53,444 bases of DNA from a virus (taxonomy: Duplodnaviria > Caudoviricetes). Under the pieces are notes generated by a model, which was not told where the DNA came from, did not search any database, and saw only the letters and a list, made by a program, of their open reading frames with translations. Both the position numbers and the translations under genes were made by a program. The stretch is from IMG/VR virus record IMGVR_UViG_3300007609_000025, positions 1-53,444 of that record. One strand, given 5' to 3'. Below, piece after piece: positions 11,503 through 27,900 of this stretch; position 1 is the stretch's first letter; each line of letters begins with the position of its first letter.

Positions 11503-13772
11503 TGGCAATATTTAAATCACCTACTACTATAAACGATAAAGAGGCATTAGTCGCCCCAGCTTTGGGCGTTAATACCTCTTTTTCTTTTGCTAACACAGTG
11601 TCTAACGCTACTGCTATTGTTGTAGCAGGCAATAATGAAGTTTCTTACGCTTTTTCTGAAATTGAAGTAGGTGCGATATCTCCTGATGCTGAATTTTTAA
11701 ATTTATACTCTATAAGTTCCACAACCTCTAATGTTAATGAAAACGTTTCTATTTCTTTTACTGTATCTTCTATCGCAGAGCCTAACAGCACGCTATACTG
11801 GTCAGTGAGTGGTGCAGGAATAACAGATACAGACTTCTCCTCCCCTACCTCTGCAGTAAGTGCTGGAGGCACAGTTACACTAGTTGAAGGCGAAGGTAGT
11901 TTTACGCTAACTGCTAACGCAGACTTAACTACTGAAGGAGAAGAGAGCTTTGATGTAAATATCAGTGCAGAGGATCCTAGTATAAGTACTCCAGCTGTAG
12001 GGCAACAACAATTTACTGCTACGGGCACACAAACTTGGACAGTGCCCTCAGGAGTGACTAGTATATCAGTAGTAACCGTAGGCGGAGGCGGAGGTGCTTC
12101 AGCATGCCCAGGTAGTAGTAATAACTCAGGAGGCGGCGGAGGCGGAGGAGGACTTTCTTACGTTAATAATATACCTGTTACTCCCGGAGAAACACTTTCT
12201 ATTTCTGTAGGTGCTGGAGGCTCTGGAGGGGCCTCTGGTACTTCTTCAGGGGCTTCAGGAGGGACTACTAGTGTGCTCAGAGGAGCCACTGTTTTAGTTA
12301 GGGCAACAGGCGGGGCAGGAGGATCTAATTCTGGTACTACTGCTTCAGGAGGCTCATCTGTAGTAGGCTCCGGAGGCTCGGGAGGCTCGGGAGGAGCCGC
12401 TCAAAATAACAACGGAGGCGGCGGAGGGGGAGGCGCTGCTGGCTACTCTGGTAATGGAGGCAACGCAGGTACAGGTAATACCGGAACAGGAGCCAACGGT
12501 AGCGGAGGCGGCGGTGGAGGCGGCGGAGGCCAATCTGCCGGAGGTACTCAAGATAATGGCGGCGGGGGGGTAGGACTACTCGGTCAAGGCGCTAATGGTC
12601 TAGGAGGTTCTACAGATTCCCCTGGAACTGGAGGCTCTGGCGGCGTAACTGGGCAAAGTGGAGGTAATGGAGGAGCTTACGGTGGAGGCGGGGGTGGTAA
12701 AGAAGATGATACTCCAGGCCGTGGCGGTAATGGTGCTCAAGGAGCTGTTCGTATTATTTGGGGGGATGGTAGAGCTTTCCCTTCTACAGACACTCAAGAT
12801 TTAACCCCTCAAGAAGGATCGTCAGGAACTCCTATTATAGCTTCCACAAATCCTTCTATTGTTATAAATGATACTTCTTTATCTATCCCTACCCAGGCAC
12901 AAGGCAGTGTGAGCGGTTACACCTCTGGAGGTTTTGCTCCTGGGGAGGTAAACACTATAGACAAATTTCCATTCGCAGCAGATACAAATGCAACAGATGT
13001 GGGAGATCTAACACAGGCAAGATCTCGGGTAGCAGGTCAGTCTAGTGATACTAGCGGTTACACCTCTGGAGGATTTGCTCCTCCATATACTAACACTATA
13101 GACAAGTTCCCCTTTAGCTCAGATACAAATGCAACTGACGTAGGTAACCTCATACAAGCAAGAGATCGTGCAGCAGGACAGTCGAGTGAGACTAGCGGTT
13201 ACTCCTCTGGGGGGCAAACAAACCCCACAAAAGTTAACACTATAGATAAGTTTCCCTTCAGCTCAGATACAAGTGCAAGCAACGTGGGGGATTTAACCAC
13301 AATAAGAGCAAGTTCAGCAGGACAGTCAAGTGAGACTAGTGGTTACTCCTCTGGAGGCATCATGGGCTCCACGACCCCAAGTGCACTTAATGTAATAGAG
13401 AAATTCCCCTTCGCTACAGATACAAATGCATCAGATGTGGGCAATTTAATTCAGCCTAGGTATCTGACAGCAGGTCAGTCAAGTCAGTCAAGTGGTTACA
13501 CCTCTGGGGGTACCCAGCCTCCACTTATCATCACTATAGAGAAATTCCCCTTCAGCTCAGATACAAATTCAACTGCCGTAGGCGATTTAACACAAGCTAG
13601 ATGGTTAGGTGCAAGCCAGTCAAGTGAGACTAGTGGTTACTCCTCTGGAGGATTATATTCCTCTCCTAATAGTGATATAATAGACAAGTTCCCTTTTAGT
13701 TCAGATAGCAATGCAACTGACGTAGGTGATTTAACACAAGCAAGACGGAGCTCAGCAGGACAGCAAATTTAA
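11502..13772 (+). CDS. Virion protein: Ig/Calx-beta-like domain, glycine-rich domain, six Kelch-like repeats (paralogue 3)
   Basis: TLYWSVSG...DF...ADLTTEGEESF; TWTVPSGVTSISVV.VGGGG...GAQGAVRIIWG; six repeats ending AGQQI. Confidence 0.75.
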   Translation: MAIFKSPTTINDKEALVAPALGVNTSFSFANTVSNATAIVVAGNNEVSYAFSEIEVGAISPDAEFLNLYSISSTTSNVNENVSISFTVSSIAEPNSTLYWSVSGAGITDTDFSSPTSAVSAGGTVTLVEGEGSFTLTANADLTTEGEESFDVNISAEDPSISTPAVGQQQFTATGTQTWTVPSGVTSISVVTVGGGGGASACPGSSNNSGGGGGGGGLSYVNNIPVTPGETLSISVGAGGSGGASGTSSGASGGTTSVLRGATVLVRATGGAGGSNSGTTASGGSSVVGSGGSGGSGGAAQNNNGGGGGGGAAGYSGNGGNAGTGNTGTGANGSGGGGGGGGGQSAGGTQDNGGGGVGLLGQGANGLGGSTDSPGTGGSGGVTGQSGGNGGAYGGGGGGKEDDTPGRGGNGAQGAVRIIWGDGRAFPSTDTQDLTPQEGSSGTPIIASTNPSIVINDTSLSIPTQAQGSVSGYTSGGFAPGEVNTIDKFPFAADTNATDVGDLTQARSRVAGQSSDTSGYTSGGFAPPYTNTIDKFPFSSDTNATDVGNLIQARDRAAGQSSETSGYSSGGQTNPTKVNTIDKFPFSSDTSASNVGDLTTIRASSAGQSSETSGYSSGGIMGSTTPSALNVIEKFPFATDTNASDVGNLIQPRYLTAGQSSQSSGYTSGGTQPPLIITIEKFPFSSDTNSTAVGDLTQARWLGASQSSETSGYSSGGLYSSPNSDIIDKFPFSSDSNATDVGDLTQARRSSAGQQI

Positions 13773-13783
13773 AAGATATTAAT

Positions 13784-15052
13784 ATGAATGATAACTATTT
13801 TAAAATACCCGTAGATAGGCTAGTAAGTAAATTACCAGCTAAATTCGGGTTTAATCAATTTAACCCTAGCCAAGCAGCAATGCTTGAAGGGTTAGAAGAG
13901 CACCGATTTTGGACTCATATATCTGCTAGACGTACGGGTAAGTCTAGTGCTGCTGCTGTTTTAGCTTTAGCTAAGCTGTTAGAGCCTAACCAGCAGGTGC
14001 TTGTAGTAGCCCCTGACTATAATCTTTCTTCTATTATATGGGACTATACTACTGAGCTTATAGAGGCGCTAGGGATTGAAACTAAGAGACTAAACCTAAA
14101 AGATAGAGTTGTTAGACTTGTTAACGATAGTACTTTTAGGCTTCTATCTGCTAATAACCGTAGTTCTCTAGTAGGTAGAGCAGCTCACTTACTAATTGTT
14201 GACGAAGCTGCAATTATACAAGATGATGAATATTTTACTAGAGACCTAAGACCCGCACTATCAACCTATGAAGGTTCTAGAGCTCTATTCATATCTACTC
14301 CTAGAGGAGAAGGAAACTATCTTTATAAGTATTTTTGCAGAGGCGCAGATGAAAACTATCCAGAATGGGGTAGCGGTCTATTTCCTTGGCATGTTAATCC
14401 AGCACTAAAAGAAGCAGATATTTCTGAGGCTAAACGAACACTTCCTCCTTCTATATTTAGGCAAGAGTACTATTGTGATTGGGTTAGCTTTGAAGGGCAA
14501 ATATACCCTGTTAAAGATGATCTACATGTACGAGACTTAAAGTCCCATATAGAACCACATGACGATAGATATATGTTTATAGCAGGACTAGATATGGGCT
14601 ATAGAGATGATACTGCTTTTGTAGTATTAGCTACTGATGGTTCTTCATATTACATAATGGATGAGTATGTAGCGTCTGAAGGTACTACTTCTTCTCATGC
14701 AGAAGTAATATCTAAGATGATTGAGGATTGGGGTATTGAAAATATATATATTGACTCTGCCAACCAACAAACTAAAGCTGATTTAGCTTATGACTATGAT
14801 ATTTTTTGTGAAAGCGCAATAAAATCTGTTAATGATGGTATAGGCTATTTACAAGTATTAGTAGAGAATGAACAGTTACTATTCGATATTGAAGGATCTT
14901 CTAGAACTTACTCTAGTTTTAAAGACTATAGATGGAATACTAAAGGTGAAAAATCTAAACCATTACATAGTTGGAGTTCTCACTGTTGTGACGCGGTACG
15001 CTATGCAATATATACCCATGCTAAAAATGCTTCAGTTAGTATATACGCCTAG
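13784..15052 (+). CDS. terL: Terminase large subunit (T5-like)
   Basis: Walker A RRTGKS, Walker B LLIVDEAA, FISTPRG, nuclease motifs GLDMG and SHCCDAVRY. Confidence 0.95.
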   Translation: MNDNYFKIPVDRLVSKLPAKFGFNQFNPSQAAMLEGLEEHRFWTHISARRTGKSSAAAVLALAKLLEPNQQVLVVAPDYNLSSIIWDYTTELIEALGIETKRLNLKDRVVRLVNDSTFRLLSANNRSSLVGRAAHLLIVDEAAIIQDDEYFTRDLRPALSTYEGSRALFISTPRGEGNYLYKYFCRGADENYPEWGSGLFPWHVNPALKEADISEAKRTLPPSIFRQEYYCDWVSFEGQIYPVKDDLHVRDLKSHIEPHDDRYMFIAGLDMGYRDDTAFVVLATDGSSYYIMDEYVASEGTTSSHAEVISKMIEDWGIENIYIDSANQQTKADLAYDYDIFCESAIKSVNDGIGYLQVLVENEQLLFDIEGSSRTYSSFKDYRWNTKGEKSKPLHSWSSHCCDAVRYAIYTHAKNASVSIYA

Positions 15053-15091
15053 CATTATTAGTATAAAAAGTAAAAGATCCAAAATAAATTT

Positions 15092-15120
15092 TTGACTTAA
15101 CACACTATAAGAATTATAAT
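15092..15120 (+). promoter_or_regulatory. Sigma70-type promoter
   Basis: TTGACT-N17-TATAAT with an AT-rich upstream element. Confidence 0.8.
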
Positions 15121-15127
15121 TTAATAA

Positions 15128-15529
15128 ATGACAGAATTAAAAAGATTACCTGTAAAATACGTAAGAGACTTTATAAAAAAAGACTATAAATACGATGACT
15201 CCTGCTTTATATGTGGTAGCACAGAAAAACTAGAGCTACATCATATTTATAGTATATCTGAACTATGGAATAATTGGTTAGATAAAAATAAGTATAAAGA
15301 TCTTGACCTAGAAGATATAATGAATCTTCGTGTAATATTTTACAATGAACATAAAGAGCAGCTAGATCAGCATAATCTATATACCTTATGTAAAAGTCAC
15401 CACCAAAGACTGCATAACATATACGGGTCTAGGTATTCTAATTGGCGATCTGAGAAAGTAAAAGCTTGGATTATAGCTCAAAAACAAAAACTTGGAGAGA
15501 AAAATGGCTGGGCCGATACAGTGGATTAG
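15128..15529 (+). CDS. HNH endonuclease, T5 nicking-endonuclease type
   Basis: CFICG...LELHH...TLCKSHH.RLH.IYG; located between terL and portal as in T5. Confidence 0.8.
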   Translation: MTELKRLPVKYVRDFIKKDYKYDDSCFICGSTEKLELHHIYSISELWNNWLDKNKYKDLDLEDIMNLRVIFYNEHKEQLDQHNLYTLCKSHHQRLHNIYGSRYSNWRSEKVKAWIIAQKQKLGEKNGWADTVD

Positions 15530-16784
15530 AGAAAAATTAAACCCAATTCAGCCTTATCTACAAAGCCAAGAACCGTTAATACACCCTGATAGCAATGTCG
15601 ACTATAGAGCGGCTTATGATCAAGTAGAGCTAATTCATAGGTGTATAGAAATGATAATAAATTCAGTAGTAGGTATTCCTTTTGCAATAGGTGCTGATAC
15701 ACAAGGTGGTCCGGTAAAAAAAGTAAATAAATTACTAAACGAAAGACCTAACCCTTTTGAAGACAGAACTAGGTTTTTTAGACGTGCTGTTATGGACTTA
15801 TTGTTAGATGGTAATGTATTCTTCTACTATGACGGTAAAGACATTTACATATTACCAGCAAATGATATAGAAATACAAACAGACGCTAAACGTTTTGTTA
15901 AAAGTTATACTTACTTATTAAGTAGTTCTGGTACTAGTTATGATTCAGGCTTTGAGCCTTTTGCAGGTAGTTCTTCTAGAAACCCTCCTAGAGACACTCA
16001 AGAGACTACTAAAATAGAGTTTGACGCTTCCGAAGTTATACATATACGAGACGACAATGACGATAGTATATTTAGAGGTAAGAGCAGACTTAGAAGCTTA
16101 ACAGACCTAATAAATCTATACTATGCATTATTAAAGTTCCAGAAACAGTTTTTCAAAAATAACGCTATACCAGGCGTTGTACTTACAACAGATAACGTAT
16201 TAAACACAAAGATTAAAGAGCGACTGTTACAAAGCTGGAGAAATAGTTATACTACTATATTTAATGGGGCTAGAAATCCTGCTATTTTAGACGGCGGCTT
16301 AAAAATAGATAAGTTCAGTGAAGTTAACTTTCAAAGCCTGGATTTTGAGAGTAGTGTAGAAAGACTACAGCAAGATATGGCTAAAGCTCTAGGTGTACCT
16401 TATGTGCTTCTAAAAAGTGGTAATAATGCTAATATAGCTACAAACCAAGTACTATTTTATGAGCATACTATAATACCCATAGTTCAGCAATTTGCTAGCG
16501 CCTTTGAGCATTATTTTAATAGCGTTAAGATAAGGCCTGAACTTATACATATACCTGCGTTGCAGCCAGATTTAAAGTCTCAAGCGCAGTATTACTCATC
16601 TTTAGTGAATGCAGGAATAATAACAGCAGATGAAGCTAGATTAAAATTACATTTTCCTGCTATTAATGATGATACTACCAATAAAATTCGTATACCTCAA
16701 AACATAGCAGGAAGTGCAACCTCCCCCGAATTAGGAGGTAGGCCGGATAATACGGATATTGAGAACACATTAGAATCGGAGTGA
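15504..16784 (+). CDS. Portal protein (HK97/T5-like)
   Basis: LLNERPNPF, LLLDGN, EVIHIRD, FFKNNAIPG, ILDGGLK, ITADEAR; ATG 15504 follows GGAGA. Confidence 0.93.
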   Translation: MAGPIQWIREKLNPIQPYLQSQEPLIHPDSNVDYRAAYDQVELIHRCIEMIINSVVGIPFAIGADTQGGPVKKVNKLLNERPNPFEDRTRFFRRAVMDLLLDGNVFFYYDGKDIYILPANDIEIQTDAKRFVKSYTYLLSSSGTSYDSGFEPFAGSSSRNPPRDTQETTKIEFDASEVIHIRDDNDDSIFRGKSRLRSLTDLINLYYALLKFQKQFFKNNAIPGVVLTTDNVLNTKIKERLLQSWRNSYTTIFNGARNPAILDGGLKIDKFSEVNFQSLDFESSVERLQQDMAKALGVPYVLLKSGNNANIATNQVLFYEHTIIPIVQQFASAFEHYFNSVKIRPELIHIPALQPDLKSQAQYYSSLVNAGIITADEARLKLHFPAINDDTTNKIRIPQNIAGSATSPELGGRPDNTDIENTLESE

Positions 16785-16788
16785 ACAA

Positions 16789-19467
16789 ATGAGCGATAAA
16801 AAGTTTTTTATTCATAGCAGTGATTTAGAGATAAAATCTGCTGCTACTAAAGAAAATGATAATATAAAAATTGCGGGGTATGCTAATACGTCGCTAAAAG
16901 ACAGAACAGGAGATGTAGTTTTACCAGAAGCCTGGGCTAAAGGTATTGAAAACTATAGAAAAAATCCTGTATTACTTTACCAACATGATCATGGCAGACC
17001 TATCGGTAAATCAGACATAGTAAGAGTAGACAAAAAAGGTATTTTTGTAGAAGCGTCTATATCAAGCGCAGCAGAAAAGTTACATGGAGTTCACTCTTTA
17101 ATTAAAGACGGAGCTTTAAAAAGCTTTAGTGTCGGCTTTAGAGTAAAAGATGCTGACTATGACCGTAGCTCAGATACTTTCCTAATCAAAGACTTAGAAT
17201 TACTAGAGATCAGTGTTGTCAGTGTTCCTTGCAACCAGGACTCTTTATTTAGCATCAGAAAAAGTTTTGAAGATGACAGCAGTTATGAGGAGTTTAAAAA
17301 ACAATTTATAGCCGAAGAAGAAAATAAAGTAGAGCCAGTTCAAGAAGTAGATAACACTGAAAAGGCTGTAGAAGAAAAAGAAGCTGTAGAAGAAGTAAAA
17401 GACACTTCTGAAGAGCTTTCTGCTGCTAGTGTAGAGACTCCAGAAGACGATCCGCACAAGCCCATCCCTTTTTATAATCTTTTAAGTGCTGAGACGTCTA
17501 GCTTAGCTGCTGGAGACTTTATTCGTATGGAGGGCAAACGCTATAATATTTCAAAAATTGCTACGGCGGAAAGCCCATATTTCATATTTAAAGAAGTTGA
17601 CATTAAGGGAGTTTCTAGCGATAATACTATTAAAGTTTATGCAGAGAACTTATCTGTAGCTAATACTTGGGATATTAGCACTAAGTTTGACTTAGTACTA
17701 GTAAATCACTCTTCTGATAAACAATTAACTACTTCAGAGAGAAATAAAATTAAAGATGAATTTGATGAGTTAGTAAAAGCTTCCGAGTTAGATTTATTTA
17801 ATCTTAAAAATAATGATAAAGTAAAGTCTAATAATAATAATCAAATAACTTTAAATAACTTAATTAATCTAAAAAGTATGGATGAAAGCTCTTGGAGCGA
17901 TACTCACTACATACTAGCAAAAAGATTTGTTAATACAGTTAAAACACTTATCACACTTCCAGAAGAAGATGATAGGAATTTTACATTACAATTAAACGGT
18001 TATAAGACCGAAAATAAGGAGAATAAACAGATGGCAACTCAAGATATTGGTGATCCCATCACTGTTGAGACAAAAAGCACTCAGGTAGATGTAGTTGAGG
18101 AGAAAACAGTTTCTAATCACGTTTCAGAGCCTCGTGTGGCTGAACTAGTCGAAAAAACAGGTGAAAAAATAATTGCTCAATCAGATGAGAAGATTAAGCA
18201 TAATAACGAAGAACATGAGAACTCTAGACTGTCAGAAGAGTTAGCGGAACTAAAAGGCCAGATGAAAGCCTATCGTGACCAAATTCAGTCTTATACCGAA
18301 AGCAAAATGGTATATCAAGAGAATACGCGCAAGCATTCTCAGTTCTCGCAGAAAGATTTATCTAACGCATACTTCCTATCTAAGGCTCTAAGAAAGAACC
18401 CTTTAGATACTAGCTATGGTGTTCGTATGAAAGATGTAGTACAAGGTGGCTCAGTTTCCGCATTTGAGAACGCTTTCTCTACTAACGTTTACGAAGAAAT
18501 GAGACAGCAACTAGTTGTTGCTCCACTATTTAACCGTATTGAAGTAAATGCTAGACAGTTTTCTGTGCCAGTAGCAAGTGAAGATGTAGATGATGATATC
18601 GCACAATTTGAGTCAGGAACTTATACAACAGACACAGACTCTAATGTGCCTACTACTAATCAGCACATAATTAAGAGTGTTGAGCTTACACCACACAAGT
18701 TTATGGTGAAAACGCATATTGCAAAAGATGAGGAAGAAGATACCCTTCTGCCTCTAGTAGACTTCCTTCGTTCCGCTGCTACACGCAGAATGGCGCGTTT
18801 CGCAGATAAAGTGCTACTAAGAGGTACAGGTACTCTAACAGGCTTTGATGCTACTGAATCAATGGTAGCTGGGTCTTCTAACGTATCTATTGGCATTGGA
18901 GGCGTGGCTTCTCCTATTAAAGGTATAGTTAACTTAGCAGGTGCTGTTAACGCTCTAAATGTGTACAGAGGTGAAGGCCTAACGGGTACTGCTGCTAATA
19001 CTGCAAAGGCTAATGCTGCCACAGTAGCAAGCACTCGTGCTGCAATGGGTAAGTATGGTCTAGCTCTTGGCGAGAACCTAGTGCTACTAACAACAGTAGA
19101 AGGCTATAATAACTTTGTTACTGAAGACGACTTCCAGACTGTAGATAAGTTTGGTTCTCAGGCAACATACCTAACAGGCTCACTAGGTGCTATCTATGGA
19201 ATTCCTCTATATATAACTGAGTTCCTAGACTCCGCTTCTGGTACTGCCAGCAATAGAGTTCTAGCTACAATGCTTTATAAGCCAGGATTCTTAATTGGTG
19301 AGCGTCGTGCTATGGAAGTAGAAAGCGAATATCTTCCAGAGCGTCAAGTAACAGCTATGTATATGTCTACTAGATTCGACATGAAAGCTCTTACAACTGA
19401 AAGCAGTGCAGCACTAAGCTCAAGTTACGCATATGCTGCTAACATTCTAAGCGGTGCTTCAGCTTAA
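16789..19467 (+). CDS. Fused prohead protease - unknown domain - major capsid protein
   Basis: N-terminal HK97-type protease (PVLLYQHD, LKSFSVGF, ELLEISVVSVPCN); C-terminal HK97-fold T5-like capsid protein; no stop codon between them. Confidence 0.9.
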   Translation: MSDKKFFIHSSDLEIKSAATKENDNIKIAGYANTSLKDRTGDVVLPEAWAKGIENYRKNPVLLYQHDHGRPIGKSDIVRVDKKGIFVEASISSAAEKLHGVHSLIKDGALKSFSVGFRVKDADYDRSSDTFLIKDLELLEISVVSVPCNQDSLFSIRKSFEDDSSYEEFKKQFIAEEENKVEPVQEVDNTEKAVEEKEAVEEVKDTSEELSAASVETPEDDPHKPIPFYNLLSAETSSLAAGDFIRMEGKRYNISKIATAESPYFIFKEVDIKGVSSDNTIKVYAENLSVANTWDISTKFDLVLVNHSSDKQLTTSERNKIKDEFDELVKASELDLFNLKNNDKVKSNNNNQITLNNLINLKSMDESSWSDTHYILAKRFVNTVKTLITLPEEDDRNFTLQLNGYKTENKENKQMATQDIGDPITVETKSTQVDVVEEKTVSNHVSEPRVAELVEKTGEKIIAQSDEKIKHNNEEHENSRLSEELAELKGQMKAYRDQIQSYTESKMVYQENTRKHSQFSQKDLSNAYFLSKALRKNPLDTSYGVRMKDVVQGGSVSAFENAFSTNVYEEMRQQLVVAPLFNRIEVNARQFSVPVASEDVDDDIAQFESGTYTTDTDSNVPTTNQHIIKSVELTPHKFMVKTHIAKDEEEDTLLPLVDFLRSAATRRMARFADKVLLRGTGTLTGFDATESMVAGSSNVSIGIGGVASPIKGIVNLAGAVNALNVYRGEGLTGTAANTAKANAATVASTRAAMGKYGLALGENLVLLTTVEGYNNFVTEDDFQTVDKFGSQATYLTGSLGAIYGIPLYITEFLDSASGTASNRVLATMLYKPGFLIGERRAMEVESEYLPERQVTAMYMSTRFDMKALTTESSAALSSSYAYAANILSGASA
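17597..17625 (+). promoter_or_regulatory. Internal sigma70-type promoter upstream of the capsid start
   Basis: TTGACA-N17-GATAAT inside the fused ORF. Confidence 0.6.
18031..19467 (+). CDS. Major capsid protein from an internal in-frame start (478 aa)
   Basis: TAAGGAG at 18015-18021 precedes ATG 18031 (codon 415); coiled-coil delta-like segment, then FSTNVYEEMRQQLVVAPLF...GAIYGIP...MSTRFD. Confidence 0.75.
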   Translation: MATQDIGDPITVETKSTQVDVVEEKTVSNHVSEPRVAELVEKTGEKIIAQSDEKIKHNNEEHENSRLSEELAELKGQMKAYRDQIQSYTESKMVYQENTRKHSQFSQKDLSNAYFLSKALRKNPLDTSYGVRMKDVVQGGSVSAFENAFSTNVYEEMRQQLVVAPLFNRIEVNARQFSVPVASEDVDDDIAQFESGTYTTDTDSNVPTTNQHIIKSVELTPHKFMVKTHIAKDEEEDTLLPLVDFLRSAATRRMARFADKVLLRGTGTLTGFDATESMVAGSSNVSIGIGGVASPIKGIVNLAGAVNALNVYRGEGLTGTAANTAKANAATVASTRAAMGKYGLALGENLVLLTTVEGYNNFVTEDDFQTVDKFGSQATYLTGSLGAIYGIPLYITEFLDSASGTASNRVLATMLYKPGFLIGERRAMEVESEYLPERQVTAMYMSTRFDMKALTTESSAALSSSYAYAANILSGASA

Positions 19468-19490
19468 TATCGCTTTTTAGTGATAGAACT

Positions 19491-19525
19491 AGGGGATGTG
19501 GGCATACAGCCCCCATCCCTTTTTT
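19491..19525 (+). terminator. Intrinsic terminator after the capsid gene
   Basis: GGGATGTGGGC-ATACA-GCCCCCATCCC followed by a T-run. Confidence 0.85.
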
Positions 19526-19543
19526 AGTATTTGGAGAGATCGA

Positions 19544-20806
19544 TTGTCTACAATAGTAACGCTTAATGATATAAAAAACTATTTAAAAATTAAATTAGAT
19601 AATGATGCAGAAGATGATAGGCTTAAGTCTATAAGTCTATATGTGTCTTCATTTATTGAGTCTTACTGCGGTAGGAAGCTTTTAGCCAACACGTACACTG
19701 AATATTTTGATGGCGGAGTAGCCTCTGTCTTTATAGATAATCCTCCGATAATTGCAGTACATGAAGTATCTCATTTTTTAGGTGATAAATACTCAGCGTT
19801 AGGAGGGCCAGGAGCAAAAGGGCAACAGATAGAAACAGAAGGCTCTAGTCATAGAATACTAGCTGTAGGGTCTGCTAAAACTACATCTCGCGTTAAAAAA
19901 TTTGGAGTATCCTCGTTACAGTTAGATGGTCAGTCTTCTTATTTAGTAGTACCTTACTCAGATGATTTTGACTTTGGCGGGGAGCCTTTTACTATAGAAA
20001 CCTACGTAAGACCTAAAAGTTTATCTAACTCTAGTATAATATCCAAAACTCAAGATAGTGAGAACTACTGGGACTTAGGCTATTCTGAGGCTTCTGGCTT
20101 ATATTTTGAGGCTAAAAGCGCTAATACTACTACTATAGCAGTCGAAGCAGGTAGCTTATCTGCAAATACTTTTAGCCATGTGGCTTTAGTTAGGGATGAT
20201 GACACTTATTCGTTATATATTAACGGTACTTTGTCGGGCAATGCGTATACTACTAGTAACGTAGTACCATCTCTAGGAGTAGATATGTTTATAGGATCAG
20301 GCCCTAATGGGGATTTAAATGGTTATATAGACGAGACGCGTATCTCTTGGATAGATAGATATACTAGTAACTTTACTGTATCTGATATACCTTTATCCTC
20401 TGATGAAGACACTAAGCTGCTTCTACATTTTAATGAGGGACGTAATAAAACAGATATAGTAGACTTTTCTAGGAGAGTTAATGAATTTATATGGTATGCT
20501 GACTCAGGTGAAGTAACTTTTGATACTTCAAAAGGTAGCGGTCGCCCCGAGCTAGGATTTTTCAATCCTAGAGTATTTCAAAACTATACTGGAGGAGTTC
20601 GTGTTACATATACCGGAGGTTACTCCTCAATGCCTAATGATTTAAAAATGGCAGCACTAGATATGATTAAGATAATCTATAAAGGTAAAGAAGGCGTTAA
20701 AAGTATGAGACTTCAAGGTGACGATTCTATATCTCATGATTTATCGTCTGACGGCTTGCCTCCTCAAGTGCGAAGAACTCTAAACTTATATAGACTCCCA
20801 GTATGA
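19544..20806 (+). CDS. Head completion/head-tail adaptor (T5 p144-like) with inserted LamG domain
   Basis: VTLNDIKNYLKI...FIESYCGR...YTEYFDG and VRVTYTGGY...PNDLKMAALD...LNLYR flank a LamG domain; TTG 19544 follows GGAGAG, downstream of the terminator. Confidence 0.75.
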   Translation: MSTIVTLNDIKNYLKIKLDNDAEDDRLKSISLYVSSFIESYCGRKLLANTYTEYFDGGVASVFIDNPPIIAVHEVSHFLGDKYSALGGPGAKGQQIETEGSSHRILAVGSAKTTSRVKKFGVSSLQLDGQSSYLVVPYSDDFDFGGEPFTIETYVRPKSLSNSSIISKTQDSENYWDLGYSEASGLYFEAKSANTTTIAVEAGSLSANTFSHVALVRDDDTYSLYINGTLSGNAYTTSNVVPSLGVDMFIGSGPNGDLNGYIDETRISWIDRYTSNFTVSDIPLSSDEDTKLLLHFNEGRNKTDIVDFSRRVNEFIWYADSGEVTFDTSKGSGRPELGFFNPRVFQNYTGGVRVTYTGGYSSMPNDLKMAALDMIKIIYKGKEGVKSMRLQGDDSISHDLSSDGLPPQVRRTLNLYRLPV

Positions 20807-22245
20807 TAACTATAGTAACACTAATAGATAATAAAACATACACAAAAGCTTTAGCGCAAGCTCGTACCTCAAGCGCTACTAAAAGTGAAGCTCTAGGTAA
20901 GGTGGGAGAAGCTGTAACTCAAGGGATATTCTCTACAAAAACAACAGCTACTACCGCTAGTGGTAAAGCTGATATTGTAGGTGTAAAAGCTGACAAAGTA
21001 ATTAGTGCTATAGAAAGATCGTATGGGGTTGATAACCCAGTAACAGCTTCTTTAGTAGCTCAAGTAAAAACAAATATGGGAGTAGACTCTATAGATATTG
21101 AATCTAAGGCTACAGAAAAGTCTTTAGGATCACAGACTATAAAAGCTACCCAGGCTACTGCTAACGTGGCAAAAAAAGATATAGATTATATAAAACGTAG
21201 TAAAGCTTTGGTAAGTGAACTTGTCAGGCTTTCTTTACAAAACGGCAATAGAAAGTCTAAGAAAATAGTTGATCTCTTTGATAAATTAATAGAAGACTTA
21301 CAAAATAATAGTGATGCAGTCCCTTTATCAGACTTCAGAGAGCAAATATATAGCGTAATAGGGGGCTCCCAAGGAAAAGCCCTTTTAGATGAAGCATTTA
21401 ACAAAGTAATGAAGAATCCTACACAGTTTAGAAAATTTATGAGAGGCCCTTTTGGCGCTATAATAAAAGATAAAGTTTCTAATTTAACAGTACAAGTAAA
21501 CGCTGAAGTAGATAATAAAAGCCTTATATTTTTTACTACTTTTTTAGGGTTAAAGTATAAAGATTCAGATATTATAGCCACAAAAGATAAACAAGGTACT
21601 TATAGGTTTTCTCTTAGCTCTTCGTTTGAGAAAAAATTATTAGCACAAACTAGAAGCGCACTATTAAAAAACTCTTTAGGAGTAATAACTGCGGATACAA
21701 ATGATGCTTTATCTTTTAATCTAACTAAAGGCAATACCTTAGGTGCTCTACTAGGAACAGAAAAGACCTTAAGAACCTTAGTAAAAAATTTATCGTTTAC
21801 CTCTTTAAATATAAAGGTGCCTACTGGCGGGTCTATACCTTTAGACATAAAAATTGATGCTAGTAAAATGTTTGTAGATGTGACTGACAGAATACCTAGA
21901 ATACTGACAGCTAACTTAGCGTCATTAGGTAATGTACAAAAGGGCAGATTTATCTCTAGAGAAAGAATGACTTCTTTATTGCAAATTTTAGTACTCGATA
22001 AAATGAAAAAACAAGGGCTAGCTGAGCCTCCTATATTAACTAATAGAACAGGCAGATTTGTAGATAGTCTACAGGTAGCACAAATAAACTATAAAAGTAA
22101 AATAGTATCCTATTATGCTAATCCTTTATACTTTTCAAACGAGCAATATGGGTATGAAGTATCTGAATTAGTAGAGGGGAGTATTCAAGATATTACTAGT
22201 AGTTTATATTCTCGTAGATTCGGATTGGTACGCGGTCAACTTTAA
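20803..22245 (+). CDS. Tail completion protein (T5 p143-like C-terminus), enlarged
   Basis: Syntenic position; basic composition; C-terminal LTNRTGRFVDSLQV motif. Confidence 0.55.
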   Translation: MITIVTLIDNKTYTKALAQARTSSATKSEALGKVGEAVTQGIFSTKTTATTASGKADIVGVKADKVISAIERSYGVDNPVTASLVAQVKTNMGVDSIDIESKATEKSLGSQTIKATQATANVAKKDIDYIKRSKALVSELVRLSLQNGNRKSKKIVDLFDKLIEDLQNNSDAVPLSDFREQIYSVIGGSQGKALLDEAFNKVMKNPTQFRKFMRGPFGAIIKDKVSNLTVQVNAEVDNKSLIFFTTFLGLKYKDSDIIATKDKQGTYRFSLSSSFEKKLLAQTRSALLKNSLGVITADTNDALSFNLTKGNTLGALLGTEKTLRTLVKNLSFTSLNIKVPTGGSIPLDIKIDASKMFVDVTDRIPRILTANLASLGNVQKGRFISRERMTSLLQILVLDKMKKQGLAEPPILTNRTGRFVDSLQVAQINYKSKIVSYYANPLYFSNEQYGYEVSELVEGSIQDITSSLYSRRFGLVRGQL

Positions 22246-22255
22246 AAAATTATAA

Positions 22256-22284
22256 TTGCCGTAGTTAATATGCTGTGCTATACT
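22256..22284 (+). promoter_or_regulatory. Sigma70-type promoter with extended -10
   Basis: TTGCCG-N17-TATACT with TG preceding the -10. Confidence 0.65.
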
Positions 22285-22304
22285 CTACTAAAGTAAGGTT
22301 AAAA

Positions 22305-22760
22305 ATGTCTCAAAGACGAAAAATTGTAAATTACATTATTGATAATTTAAAGCTGATAGACGGTTCAATATCTTCTCTAAACAGCACTTATAGATTTAAA
22401 ACTGACCTACATACTAATGTTTATAGAGGGTTTAAAGGCATTGATGAGATAAATGACTTCCCTTCTATATATGTAGTAGCAGGAAACGAAACTAGAAATT
22501 ACAATACAAAAAATATAACTTTATCAAACCTACCTATTATTATTCGTGTGTATACGTACTTTGAAGAAGAAGAGCTAGTAAATACTTATAATGGTAACAT
22601 AATTCAAGATATTGAACATGTTATATATAATCTTCCTAGTAACTTTGACTTAGAAATTCAAGACATACAAATACAAACTATAAATTCAGATGAAGGACTA
22701 TTAGCACCTTATGGCATTGTAGAAGTACAACTGCAGGCAAGCTATGAAGTCCGATTATAA
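22305..22760 (+). CDS. Tail terminator protein (T5 p142-like)
   Basis: NVYRGFK.IDEINDFPSIYV..G.ETR.Y; DIEHVI; SDEGLLAPYG; ATG 22305 follows TAAGG. Confidence 0.78.
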   Translation: MSQRRKIVNYIIDNLKLIDGSISSLNSTYRFKTDLHTNVYRGFKGIDEINDFPSIYVVAGNETRNYNTKNITLSNLPIIIRVYTYFEEEELVNTYNGNIIQDIEHVIYNLPSNFDLEIQDIQIQTINSDEGLLAPYGIVEVQLQASYEVRL

Positions 22761-22771
22761 GGAGACAATAA

Positions 22772-24061
22772 ATGGCTAATTGCGGTCCTAATACCCAGGT
22801 AAATCTTCAAAGAAATACAGAAGTTTTCTGGTCCACTATCGATCTAAATGGAGGGGGCGATGGTGCCTCAATGACTCCACAAAATACTTGGAGAGTTGAA
22901 GTACTAGCAGGGTATGCGTTTACTCAAAGTGCTACTAACCAAGATATTACTACTCTAGAATCTGGTAATACGCCAGATAGATCTACTCAAAGATTTAATA
23001 CTGCTGTTAACCCTGTAGAATGGAACTTCAGCACCTATATAAGACCTACAGGTATGATAACTACTGATGGCGCTGACTCAGCTACTGGTAACTCAAAACC
23101 TGTAGCTGACTGGTTCTTATGGCAGTCTATGATGTCTAACGCCCGTGTAGCTGCTAACGGAGCAGAAAATAGTGCCTGGGAAAACAACGGCATATTCAAT
23201 CTGAAGCATCGTGGCTTCTCTGATAACGCAGATATCGGTGCAGCCTCTAATGCTAACGTTTCCGCTCACTCATCTAACTTCCCACAAATGGAAGAGTATA
23301 GCTTATACTTCAAAGTAGATAACGTTGTATACCAAGTTGGTAAAGCAGCTATTAACGAAGCCTCTGTAGATGCGGCTATTGATTCTATAGCCCTAACAGC
23401 CTGGAGCGGTTTTGGTACTCAGTTATTTGAACTAACAGATACAGCTAGAGATGCAGCTATCTCTGTATTCGGCGGTACTGATAATAGTGGCTCAAGTGTG
23501 GCGGCTAATACTACTATTGATGTAGCAGGTAACGCTGATCATCACTATCATGCCTATGGTACAGCTAACGTAGCTGGATCAAGTGCTACTTCAGCGTTTA
23601 TAAAGAACCGTCTAAGTTCTATTGATGTTATATCAGCAGCTAGTGGAGCAGAAAAGTCTTATACTTTCCCAGTTACTGGTCTATCTTGGACTTATAATAA
23701 CAACGCTACCTATTTGACTCCTGAAGAGCTAGCTTCCCTAAACTCACCTATTGGTCAGTTTACCGGTTCTAGAACTATTACTGGAAACTTCACTGCTTAT
23801 CTACGTGCAGGAGCTAACCAGTCTGCTGAGTTTATGAGAGATATTGTTACTAATACTGCGACTCAGACTACAGGAGCAAGCGCTAACCTACAAATCGGAG
23901 GTACTACTACTCCATACTTAGCATACAGTATGCCAAGAGTGCAGTTTGACTTCCCATCACACTCTATCGATGATGTTGTAGGCATAACAGTGGACTTCTT
24001 AGCACAAGAGCTAGAAGAAACATGCGGAGATGAAGTAACTATCTTTGTAAGCGATATTTAA
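22772..24061 (+). CDS. Major tail (tube) protein, T5 pb6-like
   Basis: LQRNTEVFWST...DITTLESG..P.RS.QRFN...NPVEWNFSTYIRP; strong TAAGGAG RBS. Confidence 0.85.
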   Translation: MANCGPNTQVNLQRNTEVFWSTIDLNGGGDGASMTPQNTWRVEVLAGYAFTQSATNQDITTLESGNTPDRSTQRFNTAVNPVEWNFSTYIRPTGMITTDGADSATGNSKPVADWFLWQSMMSNARVAANGAENSAWENNGIFNLKHRGFSDNADIGAASNANVSAHSSNFPQMEEYSLYFKVDNVVYQVGKAAINEASVDAAIDSIALTAWSGFGTQLFELTDTARDAAISVFGGTDNSGSSVAANTTIDVAGNADHHYHAYGTANVAGSSATSAFIKNRLSSIDVISAASGAEKSYTFPVTGLSWTYNNNATYLTPEELASLNSPIGQFTGSRTITGNFTAYLRAGANQSAEFMRDIVTNTATQTTGASANLQIGGTTTPYLAYSMPRVQFDFPSHSIDDVVGITVDFLAQELEETCGDEVTIFVSDI

Positions 24062-24070
24062 TTTGTGGCA

Positions 24071-24195
24071 GAGGGGGCCATAAATTAAGATTTCAATAGA
24101 AGGCGATTATTTTAACAAGCAGTAGTACCCCCTCACTAGCTGTACGTTAGAGCAAATAATCGCCTTCACTTTATATATAAAAACCAAATGAGGGG
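24071..24195 (+). promoter_or_regulatory. Structured intergenic RNA element with anti-SD loop
   Basis: Perfect 14-bp inverted repeat 24099-24112/24154-24167; loop CCCCCTCA is complementary to GAGGGGG (24071-77) and to the SD TGAGGGG (24189-95). Confidence 0.6.
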
Positions 24196-24203
24196 AATAC
24201 CTA

Positions 24204-24635
24204 ATGAGTTTAATTAAAAACATGATGATAAACGAAAAAGTAGTGGAAGTAGAGTTTCCAGACTCAGACAACTTCTACGTAAGTTTATCATACTTAAGCC
24301 GTGAAAAGCTTTTAAAAATACGCAATCGAGCAATGGTAATCAAGTTTAATAAGCGTAGCCGTCAAAGAGAAGAAGAAATTGATAATGATAAATTTCTTGA
24401 AGAGTACTCTAGAGAAGTTATAAAAGGATGGCGCGGTCTTACCTTACGCGAATTATCTCGTATACTTCCGGTAGAAACGGCAGGACAGGATCTTGAAAAA
24501 GAAATACCTTATTCAGAAGAAGACGCTTTAGAGCTTCTTAGAAATTCTACAATATTTGATCAGTTTGTTACTGACTCTATGAATGACTTTGAAGCTTGGG
24601 AAAATGATCGAGTAGACTCCCAGCAAAAAAACTAA
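24204..24635 (+). CDS. Tail assembly chaperone (gpG-like)
   Basis: Between tail tube and TMP; IKGWRGLT motif; ends at the slippery site. Confidence 0.8.
   Translation: MSLIKNMMINEKVVEVEFPDSDNFYVSLSYLSREKLLKIRNRAMVIKFNKRSRQREEEIDNDKFLEEYSREVIKGWRGLTLRELSRILPVETAGQDLEKEIPYSEEDALELLRNSTIFDQFVTDSMNDFEAWENDRVDSQQKN
24626..24632 (+). other. -1 programmed ribosomal frameshift site A AAA AAC
   Basis: X XXY YYZ heptamer directly before TAA; the -1 frame is open through to 24991. Confidence 0.8.
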
Positions 24636-24991
24636 AAAGGTTCATACAAGAAAAGCTCCAGACTAGGGGTATAACTAAAGAGCATTACTTTCTTATGTGT
24701 GAACAAATGGGTATAGAGCCTGATCCTAATGAGATACCCCTAGATCTTAATGATCTTTCCTACGAAGCCCAACTAGCTATTAAGATATTTAATTCATTAC
24801 CTGATAAAGTAGAAGGAATGAGCGGGTCTTGGTTAGGTAAAGATTATGCAGGATTAGGCATACTATTTGATATTTATGAAGTAGAAAATCGCCAAGAAGT
24901 ATTTGAACTAATGGCGCTTTTAACACATGAAACTGACACTCACTACAGGCAACAACAAAAGCAGAAAAGTAAGTCAAAAGGTAGAAAATGA
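24626..24991 (+). CDS. Tail assembly chaperone frameshift extension (gpT-like)
   Basis: -1 frame reads KKLKRFIQEKLQTRGITKEHYFL into MCEQMGIEPDPNEIP...; no SD before ATG 24695. Confidence 0.75.
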   Translation, partial: KKLKRFIQEKLQTRGITKEHYFLMCEQMGIEPDPNEIPLDLNDLSYEAQLAIKIFNSLPDKVEGMSGSWLGKDYAGLGILFDIYEVENRQEVFELMALLTHETDTHYRQQQKQKSKSKGRK

Positions 24992-27900
24992 TTGGCCAAT
25001 GCTAACTCAAATATTAACATTAATGTTAAAGCTAAAGGGGCTCAACGCTCCGCTAAAGACGTAAATGCAGTTGCAGACGCTCTTGGTAAACTAGGTGTTA
25101 GATCTGATAAAGCTTCTACTTCTACTGACGGCTTAAGTCGTTCTCAAACAAGACTAGGGCAGGCATCTGCAGCTAGTGGAAGACAGTTTAGCTCACAAGC
25201 AGCAGGACTTGGTGGTCTCGTTGGCGCTTATGCAGGCGCCGCGGCCACCATTTTTGCGTTACAGCAAGCATTTTCTGCCTTAAACAAAGCAGCCCAAGTA
25301 GAAAATATTGTTAGAGGTACACAGACTCTAGCTGCTGAGGTAGGTGAGAGCGGCAATAAGATAATAAAAAGCATACAAGAGATAACTGATAGCCAACTTA
25401 CTTTAGGAGAGGCAGCAGAAAAAGCAAACTTAGCCTTATCTACGGGATTTAGTACTAAGCAAATTGAAGGTCTAGCTTTTGTAGCGAATCAAGCTTCTAG
25501 AGCTCTTGGAAGAAACTTGTCTGACGCTTTTGAGCGTGTTGTTAGAGGTAGTGCTAAATTAGAACCAGAACTACTTGACGAATTAGGCATATTTACTAGA
25601 CTAGACCCAGCAGTACGTAAGTACGCTAAAGAAATTAATAAATCTGTAAATGAGCTTACAGAGTTTGAAAGACGTCAGGCGTTCGTTAATGAGGTTATCG
25701 AAGAAGGTACTCGTAAATTTAGTGCTATCGATACCTCAGCACCTTCTGCACAAAAAAGCCTAGAGAAGCTCAGCACAGCTTTAATAAATATAGGTACTCA
25801 AGTAGGAGGCTTATTAGCTAATACTTTAGCGCCTTTAGCTGATTTCTTTTCTAAAGATATAACAGGTGCTCTATCTATTTTTGGCATAGTAGCTGCTCAA
25901 GTTAGTAGAGTAGGATTTAGAGAGCTAAGCGGGGCTGCGCAGGGTGTTAATACTAGGCTCAGCTCTTTTAGAGCAAACTTATTAGAAAGCGGCTCACAAA
26001 GTGACGCCGCTCGATTTACTTTATCTGCTTTAAATAAAACTTTAATGGATCAAGAGTCTATAATAGCTAAAGGAACTAAAAAGCAAAAAGAAGTAGCTGC
26101 TTCTATATTTGCTATAGGCAAACAAGGCAAGTTATCTGCTTCAGATCTAGAAGATTTTAGTAGAGTAACTAAAGAACAAATAAAGCTACAGAAAGAGAGT
26201 CAAGCATTTGCAGCTAACGAAATAAAAGCACTGCAAGCCAAAGGTGTTACTACTACTGCTGCAAAAAATAAACTAGCAGACTATAAGGATGCTATAGTTG
26301 CATCAACAGCTGCCCAAGCTAAATTAAATAGGTCTTTAGCCTTATCTGAAACTGCTCTAGCTACCGTATCCTCTAGCGCTAGAAGAACTTCTGCTTCAAT
26401 AACTATATTAACAGGGGCAGTTAAAACTGCAACTGCTGTTATTAACGTATTCTCTAGAGTTATAAGTGGTGTATTTATATTTACAGCGCTACTACCTGTA
26501 ATAGAGAGTTTAATTGGGGTATTCCCTAAACTAGAAGCTCAAATTACTAACATTAAAAATGCTTTTTTAGATGCTAGAGACGCACAAAAAAGTTATGAAA
26601 CAGGTATTAGGAGCTTATCTAATACAGCGGGCATAAGCGGTATTTCTAAAGAATATGAGACACTAGGAAGAAGTGCTAGAGAGGCCGCTGCTACGCAAGA
26701 AGAGGTACTAACCTTTTTAACAAAGATTGGCAAAGTAGAACTTCCGGCTATAAGCTCTGTTATAGCAGGTATTAAAGGTGTTTCAGTTCAGGCAGTAGAC
26801 GCTAATAATGCGGTAGCTAATCTACAAGGGGGTTTAAGTTTATTAGCTATAGCTGGTGTTGGTGTCGCTGCTGTCGCACTTAAAACCTTTGCAGTGCCTA
26901 TGGGAGCTGTTATAGCAGGTGTAGCAGGTCTAGCACTAGGAGTAGAAGCTCTTATAGCTAAATTTACTAGCTACACTCCTGTAGTTGCTGGGTTTTTTGA
27001 GAAAGTACTATCTTTTGTAGGAGTAGGCGCTACAGCTCTAACTACTACAGAGGCTCAGATAGCCTCTGTAGAAGGCAAAATAGAAGAGTTAAAAAGTAGT
27101 CTTGCTGATGCTAAAACTTTAGATGAATATTTAGGTATACGTCAATTTATAGACTCTTTAGAATCTGCACTGCCTCTTATTGCAGACGGTAGTATCGCTA
27201 TAAGACAGTTTGCCGCTGAACTTTCTAAATCTACTGGACTTAATATAGAAGATATTTCCCGTAATTTAGTAGAAAGCAGTGATGGCGTACTGACTATCAA
27301 TAATATAGCCGTAGGCCTAAGAAATGCACAAGGGCAAATACAAAAGACAACAGGGGCTGCAAAAGATTTATTAGAAACCTCTATCGGTTTTAGTACTGTA
27401 TTTTTAAATGCTAGCTCTGAGCTTACTAATTTTAATGTTAGCTCTAGAGAGCTTATACAAACTGTAGAATCTTTAGCAAGTGCTGAGGTTAATCTTAGAG
27501 ATAAACTAAAAGGAGTTAGCTCAGAGTTAGCAGTTATTGCTAGAGAAGAGGAAGAAGCTGTAAGAGCTAGAGACGCGCTAATTAAGAGTATAGAAGGAAC
27601 TGACTATAGCTCAGTAGAGGCGCAAAGACTTATTAACCTAGATGATAGAACAAAAGAACTGAATCTTCAAAGAAGGCAGCTAGAAGCTACTAGAAGAGAG
27701 GTAGAGGCTCAGCTAAAAGTTGACGAAGATAGACTGGCTATATTAAAAAATATAGGCGATGAGCTTAACAAACAAGAAAAAACATATGAAAAAATACTTC
27801 AGTCTATATCAGCTGAAATAAAAGCCTTTGAAGATGTTAATCTTCAAGGTGTATTCGATATGGAGTCTTTAACTAGCGCAGAAACTTCTTTTGGTGTTGC

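Follow-up and report, generated by a model that had tools for sequence, protein, structure and literature searches.

A putative in-frame capsid start nested within the protease-capsid fusion gene of a distant T5-like phage

The assembly of a phage head poses a classic stoichiometry problem, as few protease molecules have to enter a shell of hundreds of capsid subunits, and the textbook answers are separate genes for the two proteins (HK97 and T5) or nested protease and scaffold genes (lambda and the herpesviruses). The virus record IMGVR_UViG_3300007609_000025 (Duplodnaviria; Caudoviricetes), analysed as an entire viral contig of 53,444 bp (the window; estimated completeness ~50%), encodes a prohead protease and the capsid protein in one open reading frame (ORF; Table 1), an arrangement that raises the question of how free capsid protein would be obtained. 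Comparison with relatives from viral contigs and metagenomes makes it probable that the locus is a nested in-frame head gene of a distant, marine T5-like phage, producing a long polyprotein and, from a second start in the same frame, an ordinary capsid precursor with which the polyprotein would co-assemble. Fusion genes and nested assembly genes are both already known, and the present gene is a variant of the two.

The fusion gene and its internal start

An earlier note, made from the letters of the DNA alone, had described an 892-codon ORF joining a protease, an acidic linker, an extra domain, and a capsid protein, a description confirmed by the ORF list, Pfam, and amino acid composition. The parts are ordered as protease, acidic linker, middle domain, delta-like domain, and capsid protein. 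The protease matches Peptidase_S78 (E = 8.1e-22; 78.5 bits against a cut-off of 21) and the head maturation proteases of phrog_80 (E = 1.6e-41), with His66, His68, Ser112, and Ser114, all candidates for the catalytic residues, invariant in 19 family sequences. The shell region matches Phage_capsid (E = 2.6e-10; 40.6 bits against a cut-off of 24.2) and, across the ORF, Pfam finds these two families alone, while residues ~205-414 have no match in PHROGs, a collection that contains families of fused 'major head and protease' proteins. PF04586 and PF05065 are both present in 19/19 near-length homologues. The linker (37% aspartate plus glutamate; isoelectric point 4.05) is rich in indels in the alignment and has a predicted local distance difference test (pLDDT) score <50 in a full-length AlphaFold2 model. 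In that model (mean pLDDT 44) the middle domain alone is confident and helices are placed at residues 450-508 with low confidence; it was not used for the protease or capsid parts. Based on the Pfam match and colinearity with T5-like proteins, the ORF that begins at Met415 corresponds to the delta domain and capsid protein precursor.

The integrity of the frame was examined in two sets of relatives, a scan of viral contigs that yielded 28 loci (25 at 67-84% amino acid identity and three distant, L026-L028) and a scan of metagenomes with a divergent homologue, P0020, that yielded 36 loci, of which 35 were analysed and one (L066) was left out because its match covered 29 residues. The match lies within one uninterrupted frame in all 28 viral-contig relatives and in 34 of the 35 metagenome relatives, the exception (L060) having a stop 6 nucleotides (nt) before the end of the match, near the end of its contig and far downstream of Met415. 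With regard to a missed stop or frameshift ahead of 18031, a 566-nt contig from an independent sequencing run (X2), covering 17470-18035, differs by 2 substitutions and zero indels; contigs from a further run (X1), a possible source of the window, are identical to it. An X2 contig that joins 17046 to 18425 was treated as unreliable, the shorter side of the joint being just 21 letters. The ratio of nonsynonymous to synonymous substitution rates (dN/dS) is 0.05-0.12 in the capsid shell part, 0.15-1.4 in the acidic tether, and 0.09-0.33 in the middle domain (9 pairs), the last of which indicates that the middle domain is translated in this frame. As judged from these sequences, the protease-capsid fusion is genuine and its middle domain is under purifying selection.

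The Shine-Dalgarno (SD) motif TAAGGAG, noted earlier ahead of the in-frame ATG at 18031 and indeed found there at a spacing of 9 nt, has a core, AGGAG, that is retained along with the fusion frame in every relative that covers the site. An ATG with AGGAG within 20 nt occurs in 58/58 relatives that cover the site (26 lineages at <95% nucleotide identity), with 9 nt between the two, or 6 nt in one lineage. The SD and ATG are identical in the 23 site-covering sequences from viral contigs, all of which fit the pattern AAG GAG AAY NNN NNN ATG, and both are found at the same spacing in all 35 metagenome loci. Whole clades exchange the first SD codon from lysine (AAG) to glutamate (GAG) with AGGAG unchanged, and divergent homologues known as protein only retain the pattern [K/E]-E-x-x-x-M-A. 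Among 25 lineages drawn from all clades, 2 of the 197 degenerate columns with an invariant amino acid are also invariant in codon (GAG411 and TTC782); GAG411 is the sole single-codon column among 13 invariant glutamate columns and uses the minority codon (GAG, 32% of glutamate codons). Within the window's clade (10 lineages), where 54/476 such columns are codon-invariant, these cluster at residues 388-422 (12/18). The comparison strongly supports the view that selection on the nucleotides themselves maintains the SD core, in spite of codon bias and beyond the needs of the protein.

In all 22 lineages compared, the internal SD is predicted to pair more strongly with the anti-SD than the SD of the fusion start does (mean, -9.1 versus -7.3 kcal/mol), and in the window the two values are -9.3 and -6.1 kcal/mol. 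The fusion's own GGAG belongs to an ACGGAG that is conserved before the start across the window's clade, and the TGA stop of the portal gene (16782-16784) lies just 3' of it. Of the 37 starts compared in the window, none has a stronger pairing than the internal one, which shares first place, and the one other TAAGGAG in the window precedes the gene for the major tail protein. Two other in-frame methionines make poorer candidates, Met247 being unconserved and Met364 having no SD, as judged from the sequence and alignment with no dedicated scan for starts. Nucleotide-level conservation in the relatives lifts both the SD with its ATG and the promoter-like site (see below) above chance, and it is very likely that the start at Met415 is used, which would give free capsid protein.

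Some observations weigh against this reading. RNA structure dips only modestly around the internal start (rank 10-14 of 121 positions), the lineages are related and the conservation counts are thus non-independent events, and none of the sequencing runs that contain this DNA is an RNA run, the phage being known from metagenomes alone. Further, in the P0020 clade the fusion's own SD (-8.2 to -8.6 kcal/mol) approaches the internal one (-9.1 kcal/mol), such that a high ratio between the products in that clade might not follow from SD strength by itself.

Origin of the nested arrangement and competing explanations

The relationship to known phages is distant. No match was obtained by megablast of positions 13000-25000 against named phages, and tblastn against the same returned only T5-like phages (Demerecviridae) and others at ~30% identity. 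The T5-like matches encode protease and capsid protein in two neighbouring genes, in line with the statement in the earlier note that T5 encodes them separately. Klebsiella phage PWKp9S illustrates the arrangement, with genes for a 198-residue protease and a 460-residue capsid protein that are divided by a stop and 13 nt and a GGAG ahead of the capsid ATG. Residues 14-192 of the window's protein align with the whole of the PWKp9S protease at 51% identity, and residues 35-451 of the nested product are colinear with residues 47-445 of the capsid protein (24% identity; E = 3e-27), including the delta-like N-terminal region. The two systems also share the order portal, protease, and capsid, and the GGAG before the capsid ATG, and differ in that the acidic tether and middle domain, together ~210 residues, have no counterpart in T5. 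In T5 itself the protease is pb11 and the capsid protein is pb8, the delta domain of which is cleaved. Because the nested product is colinear with the stand-alone T5-like capsid protein, Met415 is placed by homology at the ancestral capsid start, within ~12 residues.

From the signals, their conservation, and this homology, we infer how initiation, product ratio, co-assembly, and cleavage might proceed. Translation from 16789 would yield a 99-kDa polyprotein (S78 protease, flexible acidic tether, 190-residue domain, delta domain, and HK97-fold capsid protein), and translation from 18031 by way of TAAGGAG-N9-ATG would yield larger amounts of an ordinary 52-kDa capsid precursor. As both products share the delta and shell domains, the rare long form could co-assemble, joining the prohead lattice as a capsid subunit and leaving its protease and middle domain inside, after which, as happens in T5 and HK97, the protease would cut the delta domains away. 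The origin is most likely a T5-type pair, with a protease stop, a GGAG, and a capsid ATG 13 nt past the stop, in which the stop was lost and the ribosome-binding site and start of the capsid gene were kept. In the window's clade, a promoter embedded in the codons of the middle domain may add transcripts for the capsid protein alone.

Protease-capsid fusions in some other phages, mentioned in the earlier note, are documented in print. According to the accessible text of the sources, S78 protease-capsid fusions occur in small actinophages (PMC7302621; PMC9671004), and comparable fusions occur in thaumarchaeal proviruses (PMC6563490) and in MD8-like Pseudomonas phages (PMC8508860). As far as these sources could be consulted, the actinophage (clusters EE, AN, and others), MD8, and thaumarchaeal fusions share with the present family a single gene in which a prohead protease comes first and an HK97-fold capsid protein second, and differ in having no counterpart of the 190-residue middle domain and in the small size of their genomes, compared with contigs of up to 137-173 kb here. 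An internal start is not discussed in the accessible parts of PMC7302621, PMC8508860, and PMC6563490, and a literature search, which did not extend to subscription papers, found no report of an internal capsid start within a protease-capsid fusion. Such fusions are widely annotated, with the source of free capsid protein left unstated in the consulted portions of the papers cited. The present family offers a comparative answer, in which nucleotide-level selection has preserved the former capsid start within the fusion.

Similar signals are found in shorter fusions. Three of the viral-contig relatives (L026-L028) have fused protease-capsid genes with open frames of 657-692 residues and no middle domain, and in each an in-frame ATG stands where the protease domain ends and the delta region begins, with GAGGA (GAGG in L026) 7-8 nt upstream. 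Three unrelated 'major capsid and protease fusion' genes of Microbacterium cluster-EE phages (Anseraureola, L067:3807-5390; Efeko, L068:101-1690; Sippinontea, L069:101-1684), which share 75-100% amino acid identity, likewise have GAGAGGA or AGGAGGA ahead of an in-frame ATG that closely follows the protease domain. Fusions of this sort may thus often contain a nested capsid start, a suggestion that should be taken as a hint and not as a survey.

Nested protease and scaffold genes are known from lambda, HSV-1 (herpes simplex virus 1) and, by Ribo-seq, the Haloferax virus HFTV1 (10.64898/2026.09.13.751334, as far as its text is accessible). In lambda C/Nu3, HSV-1 UL26/UL26.5, and HFTV1 gp17, as in the present gene, a long ORF with the protease first contains an in-frame internal start; in those systems, going by the accessible text, an abundant assembly protein that ends at the same C-terminus allows the protease to be targeted through the shared C-terminal part, a logic that the present gene would share. 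The in-frame internal start with its own ribosome-binding site that characterizes such genes has its equivalent here in signals that are both present and conserved. The separate scaffold of the lambda C/Nu3 type does not, as the nested product is the capsid protein with a delta-like N-terminus; the protease families also differ. With the delta domain built into the nested product, the long form would itself be a subunit of the lattice. By these comparisons, the gene works like the nested protease/scaffold family without being a strict member of it. In its components it resembles HK97 gp4/gp5, where an S78-family protease accompanies a capsid protein with an N-terminal delta domain acting as scaffold, although in HK97 the genes are separate and the protease is recruited non-covalently.

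Three other explanations were weighed against a nested gene whose long product co-assembles. The one that survives best accepts the nested capsid start and treats the fusion as a format for synthesis, cleaving itself in the tether before assembly, with the freed protease, alone or along with the middle domain, then recruited non-covalently as in HK97 and T5 and no long form entering the lattice as a subunit. The T5-like stand-alone proteases of this family, made from two-gene systems, are encapsidated without fusion, the tether is a long acidic stretch of low conservation and predicted disorder, and the middle domain could serve as a docking module, all of which would fit; the uninterrupted frame in ~60 relatives, along with the shorter fusions that lack the middle domain, suggests instead that the covalent link is selected, and we regard this explanation as unlikely.

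A second explanation, in which the gene makes a polyprotein only, every capsid subunit being the 892-residue fusion trimmed by itself and the internal SD and ATG being idle, must be considered very unlikely. It would be compatible with a frame that is open and under purifying selection throughout, with a rough volume estimate that allows one protease per subunit, and with the description of similar actinophage fusions as one gene, no second start being mentioned in the accessible part of the source (PMC7302621), but it leaves unexplained the AGGAG-N9-ATG of 58/58 relatives, the codon-invariant GAG411, the survival of AGGAG through the change from lysine to glutamate, and the position of the site at the ancestral capsid start.

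A reading of the internal AGGAG as a translational pause or other RNA element (for example, one that aids the folding of the upstream domains), and of the promoter-like site as some other nucleic-acid function, would draw on synonymous constraint being a sign of nucleotide-level function of an unspecified kind and on a synonymous divergence in the middle region of close pairs that is about half that of the flanks, but it deserves hardly any weight given that AGGAG always precedes the invariant ATG at an SD-like spacing, that this ATG matches the start of the homologous stand-alone genes, and that there is no overlapping plus-strand ORF of at least 50 residues at either conserved site.

The promoter-like site and the middle domain

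Apart from the SD, the earlier note had proposed a promoter within the fusion ORF, and here the outcome was mixed. The TTGACA-N17-GATAAT it named is in place, with 11/12 matches in the hexamers and a 17-nt spacer, and is invariant in the window's clade and nearly kept in a sister clade; it is degraded or absent elsewhere in the family, which makes the element optional at best. Taken alone, the match is unremarkable and near chance. The window as a whole has 6 matches of at least 11/12 on both strands combined, compared with 1.8 +/- 1.3 in Markov shuffles, and matches of at least 9/12 in the region number 37, with 38.2 +/- 7.2 expected.

Among 23 sequences from the window's clade, 22-23 have the same hexamers at the same 17-nt spacing, and an A/T-rich block directly upstream of TTGACA (17575-17596) is nearly invariant. 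All four of the codons inside the hexamers with an invariant amino acid (GAC, ATT, GAT, and AAT) are fixed, while the glycine and serine codons of the spacer vary. Synonymous constraint across the ORF peaks at residues 256-285 (10/20; permutation P = 0.004). A sister clade (L044, L045, L048, and L050) has TTGACG-17-GATAAT. From this pattern we conclude that a nucleotide-level element appears to be selected at the promoter-like site in one part of the family, and a promoter is the simplest reading of the constraint.

Several points tell against a promoter. One match of at least 11/12 per strand per 53 kb is near chance, the promoter would imply a leader of ~400 nt, the site is degraded in L049 and L061, and in the P0020 clade it is absent from 12/12 sequences scanned, in which no other conserved match of at least 10/12 was found upstream of the internal ATG. 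Its absence from L049, L061, and the P0020 clade indicates that a promoter is not necessary to the design. Whether the site works as a promoter is close to an even question, with the balance slightly on the negative side, and the site is a candidate case of a promoter maintained within coding sequence. A terminator-like hairpin at 17497-17514 was dismissed, such hairpins being within chance (9 versus 8.4 expected) and this one lying in a variable part of the protein.

The middle domain, in which the promoter-like site lies, was modelled with AlphaFold2 from an alignment of 10 sequences (pLDDT 77.7; predicted template modelling score 0.75) as a small beta-barrel of six strands with a helical bundle after it. 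Structure searches with this model gave no clear fold match in the PDB by Foldseek (best E = 0.05), a best E of 5e-3 at a root-mean-square deviation of 18.6 in BFVD, a score of 0.80 in the ESM Atlas, below a useful level, and, in a wide VIA-align search, generic SH3/Tudor/KOW-like barrels with a best Z of 5.5. A profile search of 1.84 billion representatives identified 30 proteins with the domain. All 11 of the long representatives scanned carry both S78 and Phage_capsid, and the six short ones scanned, five without a Pfam family and one with S78 alone, resemble fragments. A stand-alone middle domain or split gene was considered and rejected, as the candidate protein of 137 residues ends in residues that look out of frame and the other short proteins resemble fragments. 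Across these sequences the middle domain is seemingly confined to the fusion proteins. A role as cargo, as a docking module, or as extra scaffold can be guessed at, and the family thus offers a domain that is well defined in the model, has no clear fold match, and appears to be delivered into the head.

The broadest interpretation would be that nested capsid initiation, with its signals in this T5-like lineage, in the shorter marine fusions, and as a hint in actinophage cluster EE, is general to protease-capsid fusions, that the middle domain is a cargo or docking domain of ~190 residues and new fold that is loaded at less than stoichiometric amounts, and that its codons double as the promoter and leader of a capsid mRNA. 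In this combined form the proposal is tentative and rather less likely to hold than to fail; if true, one stretch would be dual-coding, for protein and for regulatory DNA.

The middle region varies within the family in other ways. Two sequences (P0041 and P0037) have a histidine-rich insert of ~70 residues with repeated H-x-H motifs after the protease domain; their sub-lineage keeps the barrel half alone of the middle domain and retains the K-E-N-x-x-M-A motif of the internal start. Among close pairs, the synonymous divergence (pS) of positions 17452-18030 reaches about half the level of the protease and capsid parts on either side, as in L009 and L013 (0.19, with 0.50 and 0.49 in the flanks), for which nucleotide constraint on a leader region, or a recombination history of its own, could account.

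Features and genomic neighbourhood

Table 1. Coordinates of the fusion gene, its domains, and its signals in the window
Feature	Position	Strand	Description
Shine-Dalgarno of the fusion ORF (GGAG)	16778..16781	+	Inside the last portal codons
Full fusion ORF	16789..19467	+	892 residues, 98.9 kDa, ATG start
Prohead serine protease domain	16831..17253	+	Pfam Peptidase_S78, residues 15-155
Acidic, length-variable linker	17299..17451	+	Residues 171-221
Middle domain	17452..18030	+	Residues 222-414
Sigma-70-like promoter candidate	17575..17625	+	TTGACA 17597-17602, 17-nt spacer, GATAAT 17620-17625
Internal Shine-Dalgarno (TAAGGAG)	18015..18021	+	9 nt before in-frame ATG 18031 (Met415)
Nested ORF from Met415	18031..19467	+	478 residues, 52.1 kDa, co-terminal with the fusion
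HK97-fold capsid shell region	18469..19401	+	Pfam Phage_capsid, residues 561-871

The fusion gene lies in a run of head and tail genes in the order terminase, HNH gene, portal, fusion ORF, head-tail connector, tail completion protein, major tail protein, and tape measure. The HNH endonuclease-like gene between the terminase and the portal (15128-15529, +) is preceded by a gap of 75 nt with TTGACT-17-TATAAT (15092-15120), which ranks first among the promoter-like matches between genes in this part of the contig. Directly downstream of the fusion gene, a protein of 436 residues (19496-20806, +) begins like a gp6-like head-tail connector and ends like a head-completion protein, and between the two parts a concanavalin/LamG-like domain is inserted (Laminin_G_3; E = 2.8e-20; residues 144-283).

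An ORF of 4967 residues (24992-39895, +) resembles tape-measure families at both ends, with phrog_3779 at residues 53-452 (E = 2.3e-40) and phrog_3547 near the C-terminus. This is several-fold longer than usual tape measures and, if the length scaling of siphoviruses applies, would point to a very long tail. Relatives of the fusion gene are found on contigs of 137-173 kb (metagenome loci L033, L037, L039, L045, and L059), and genomes of the family may exceed the ~110-120 kb typical of the T5-like phages matched by tblastn.

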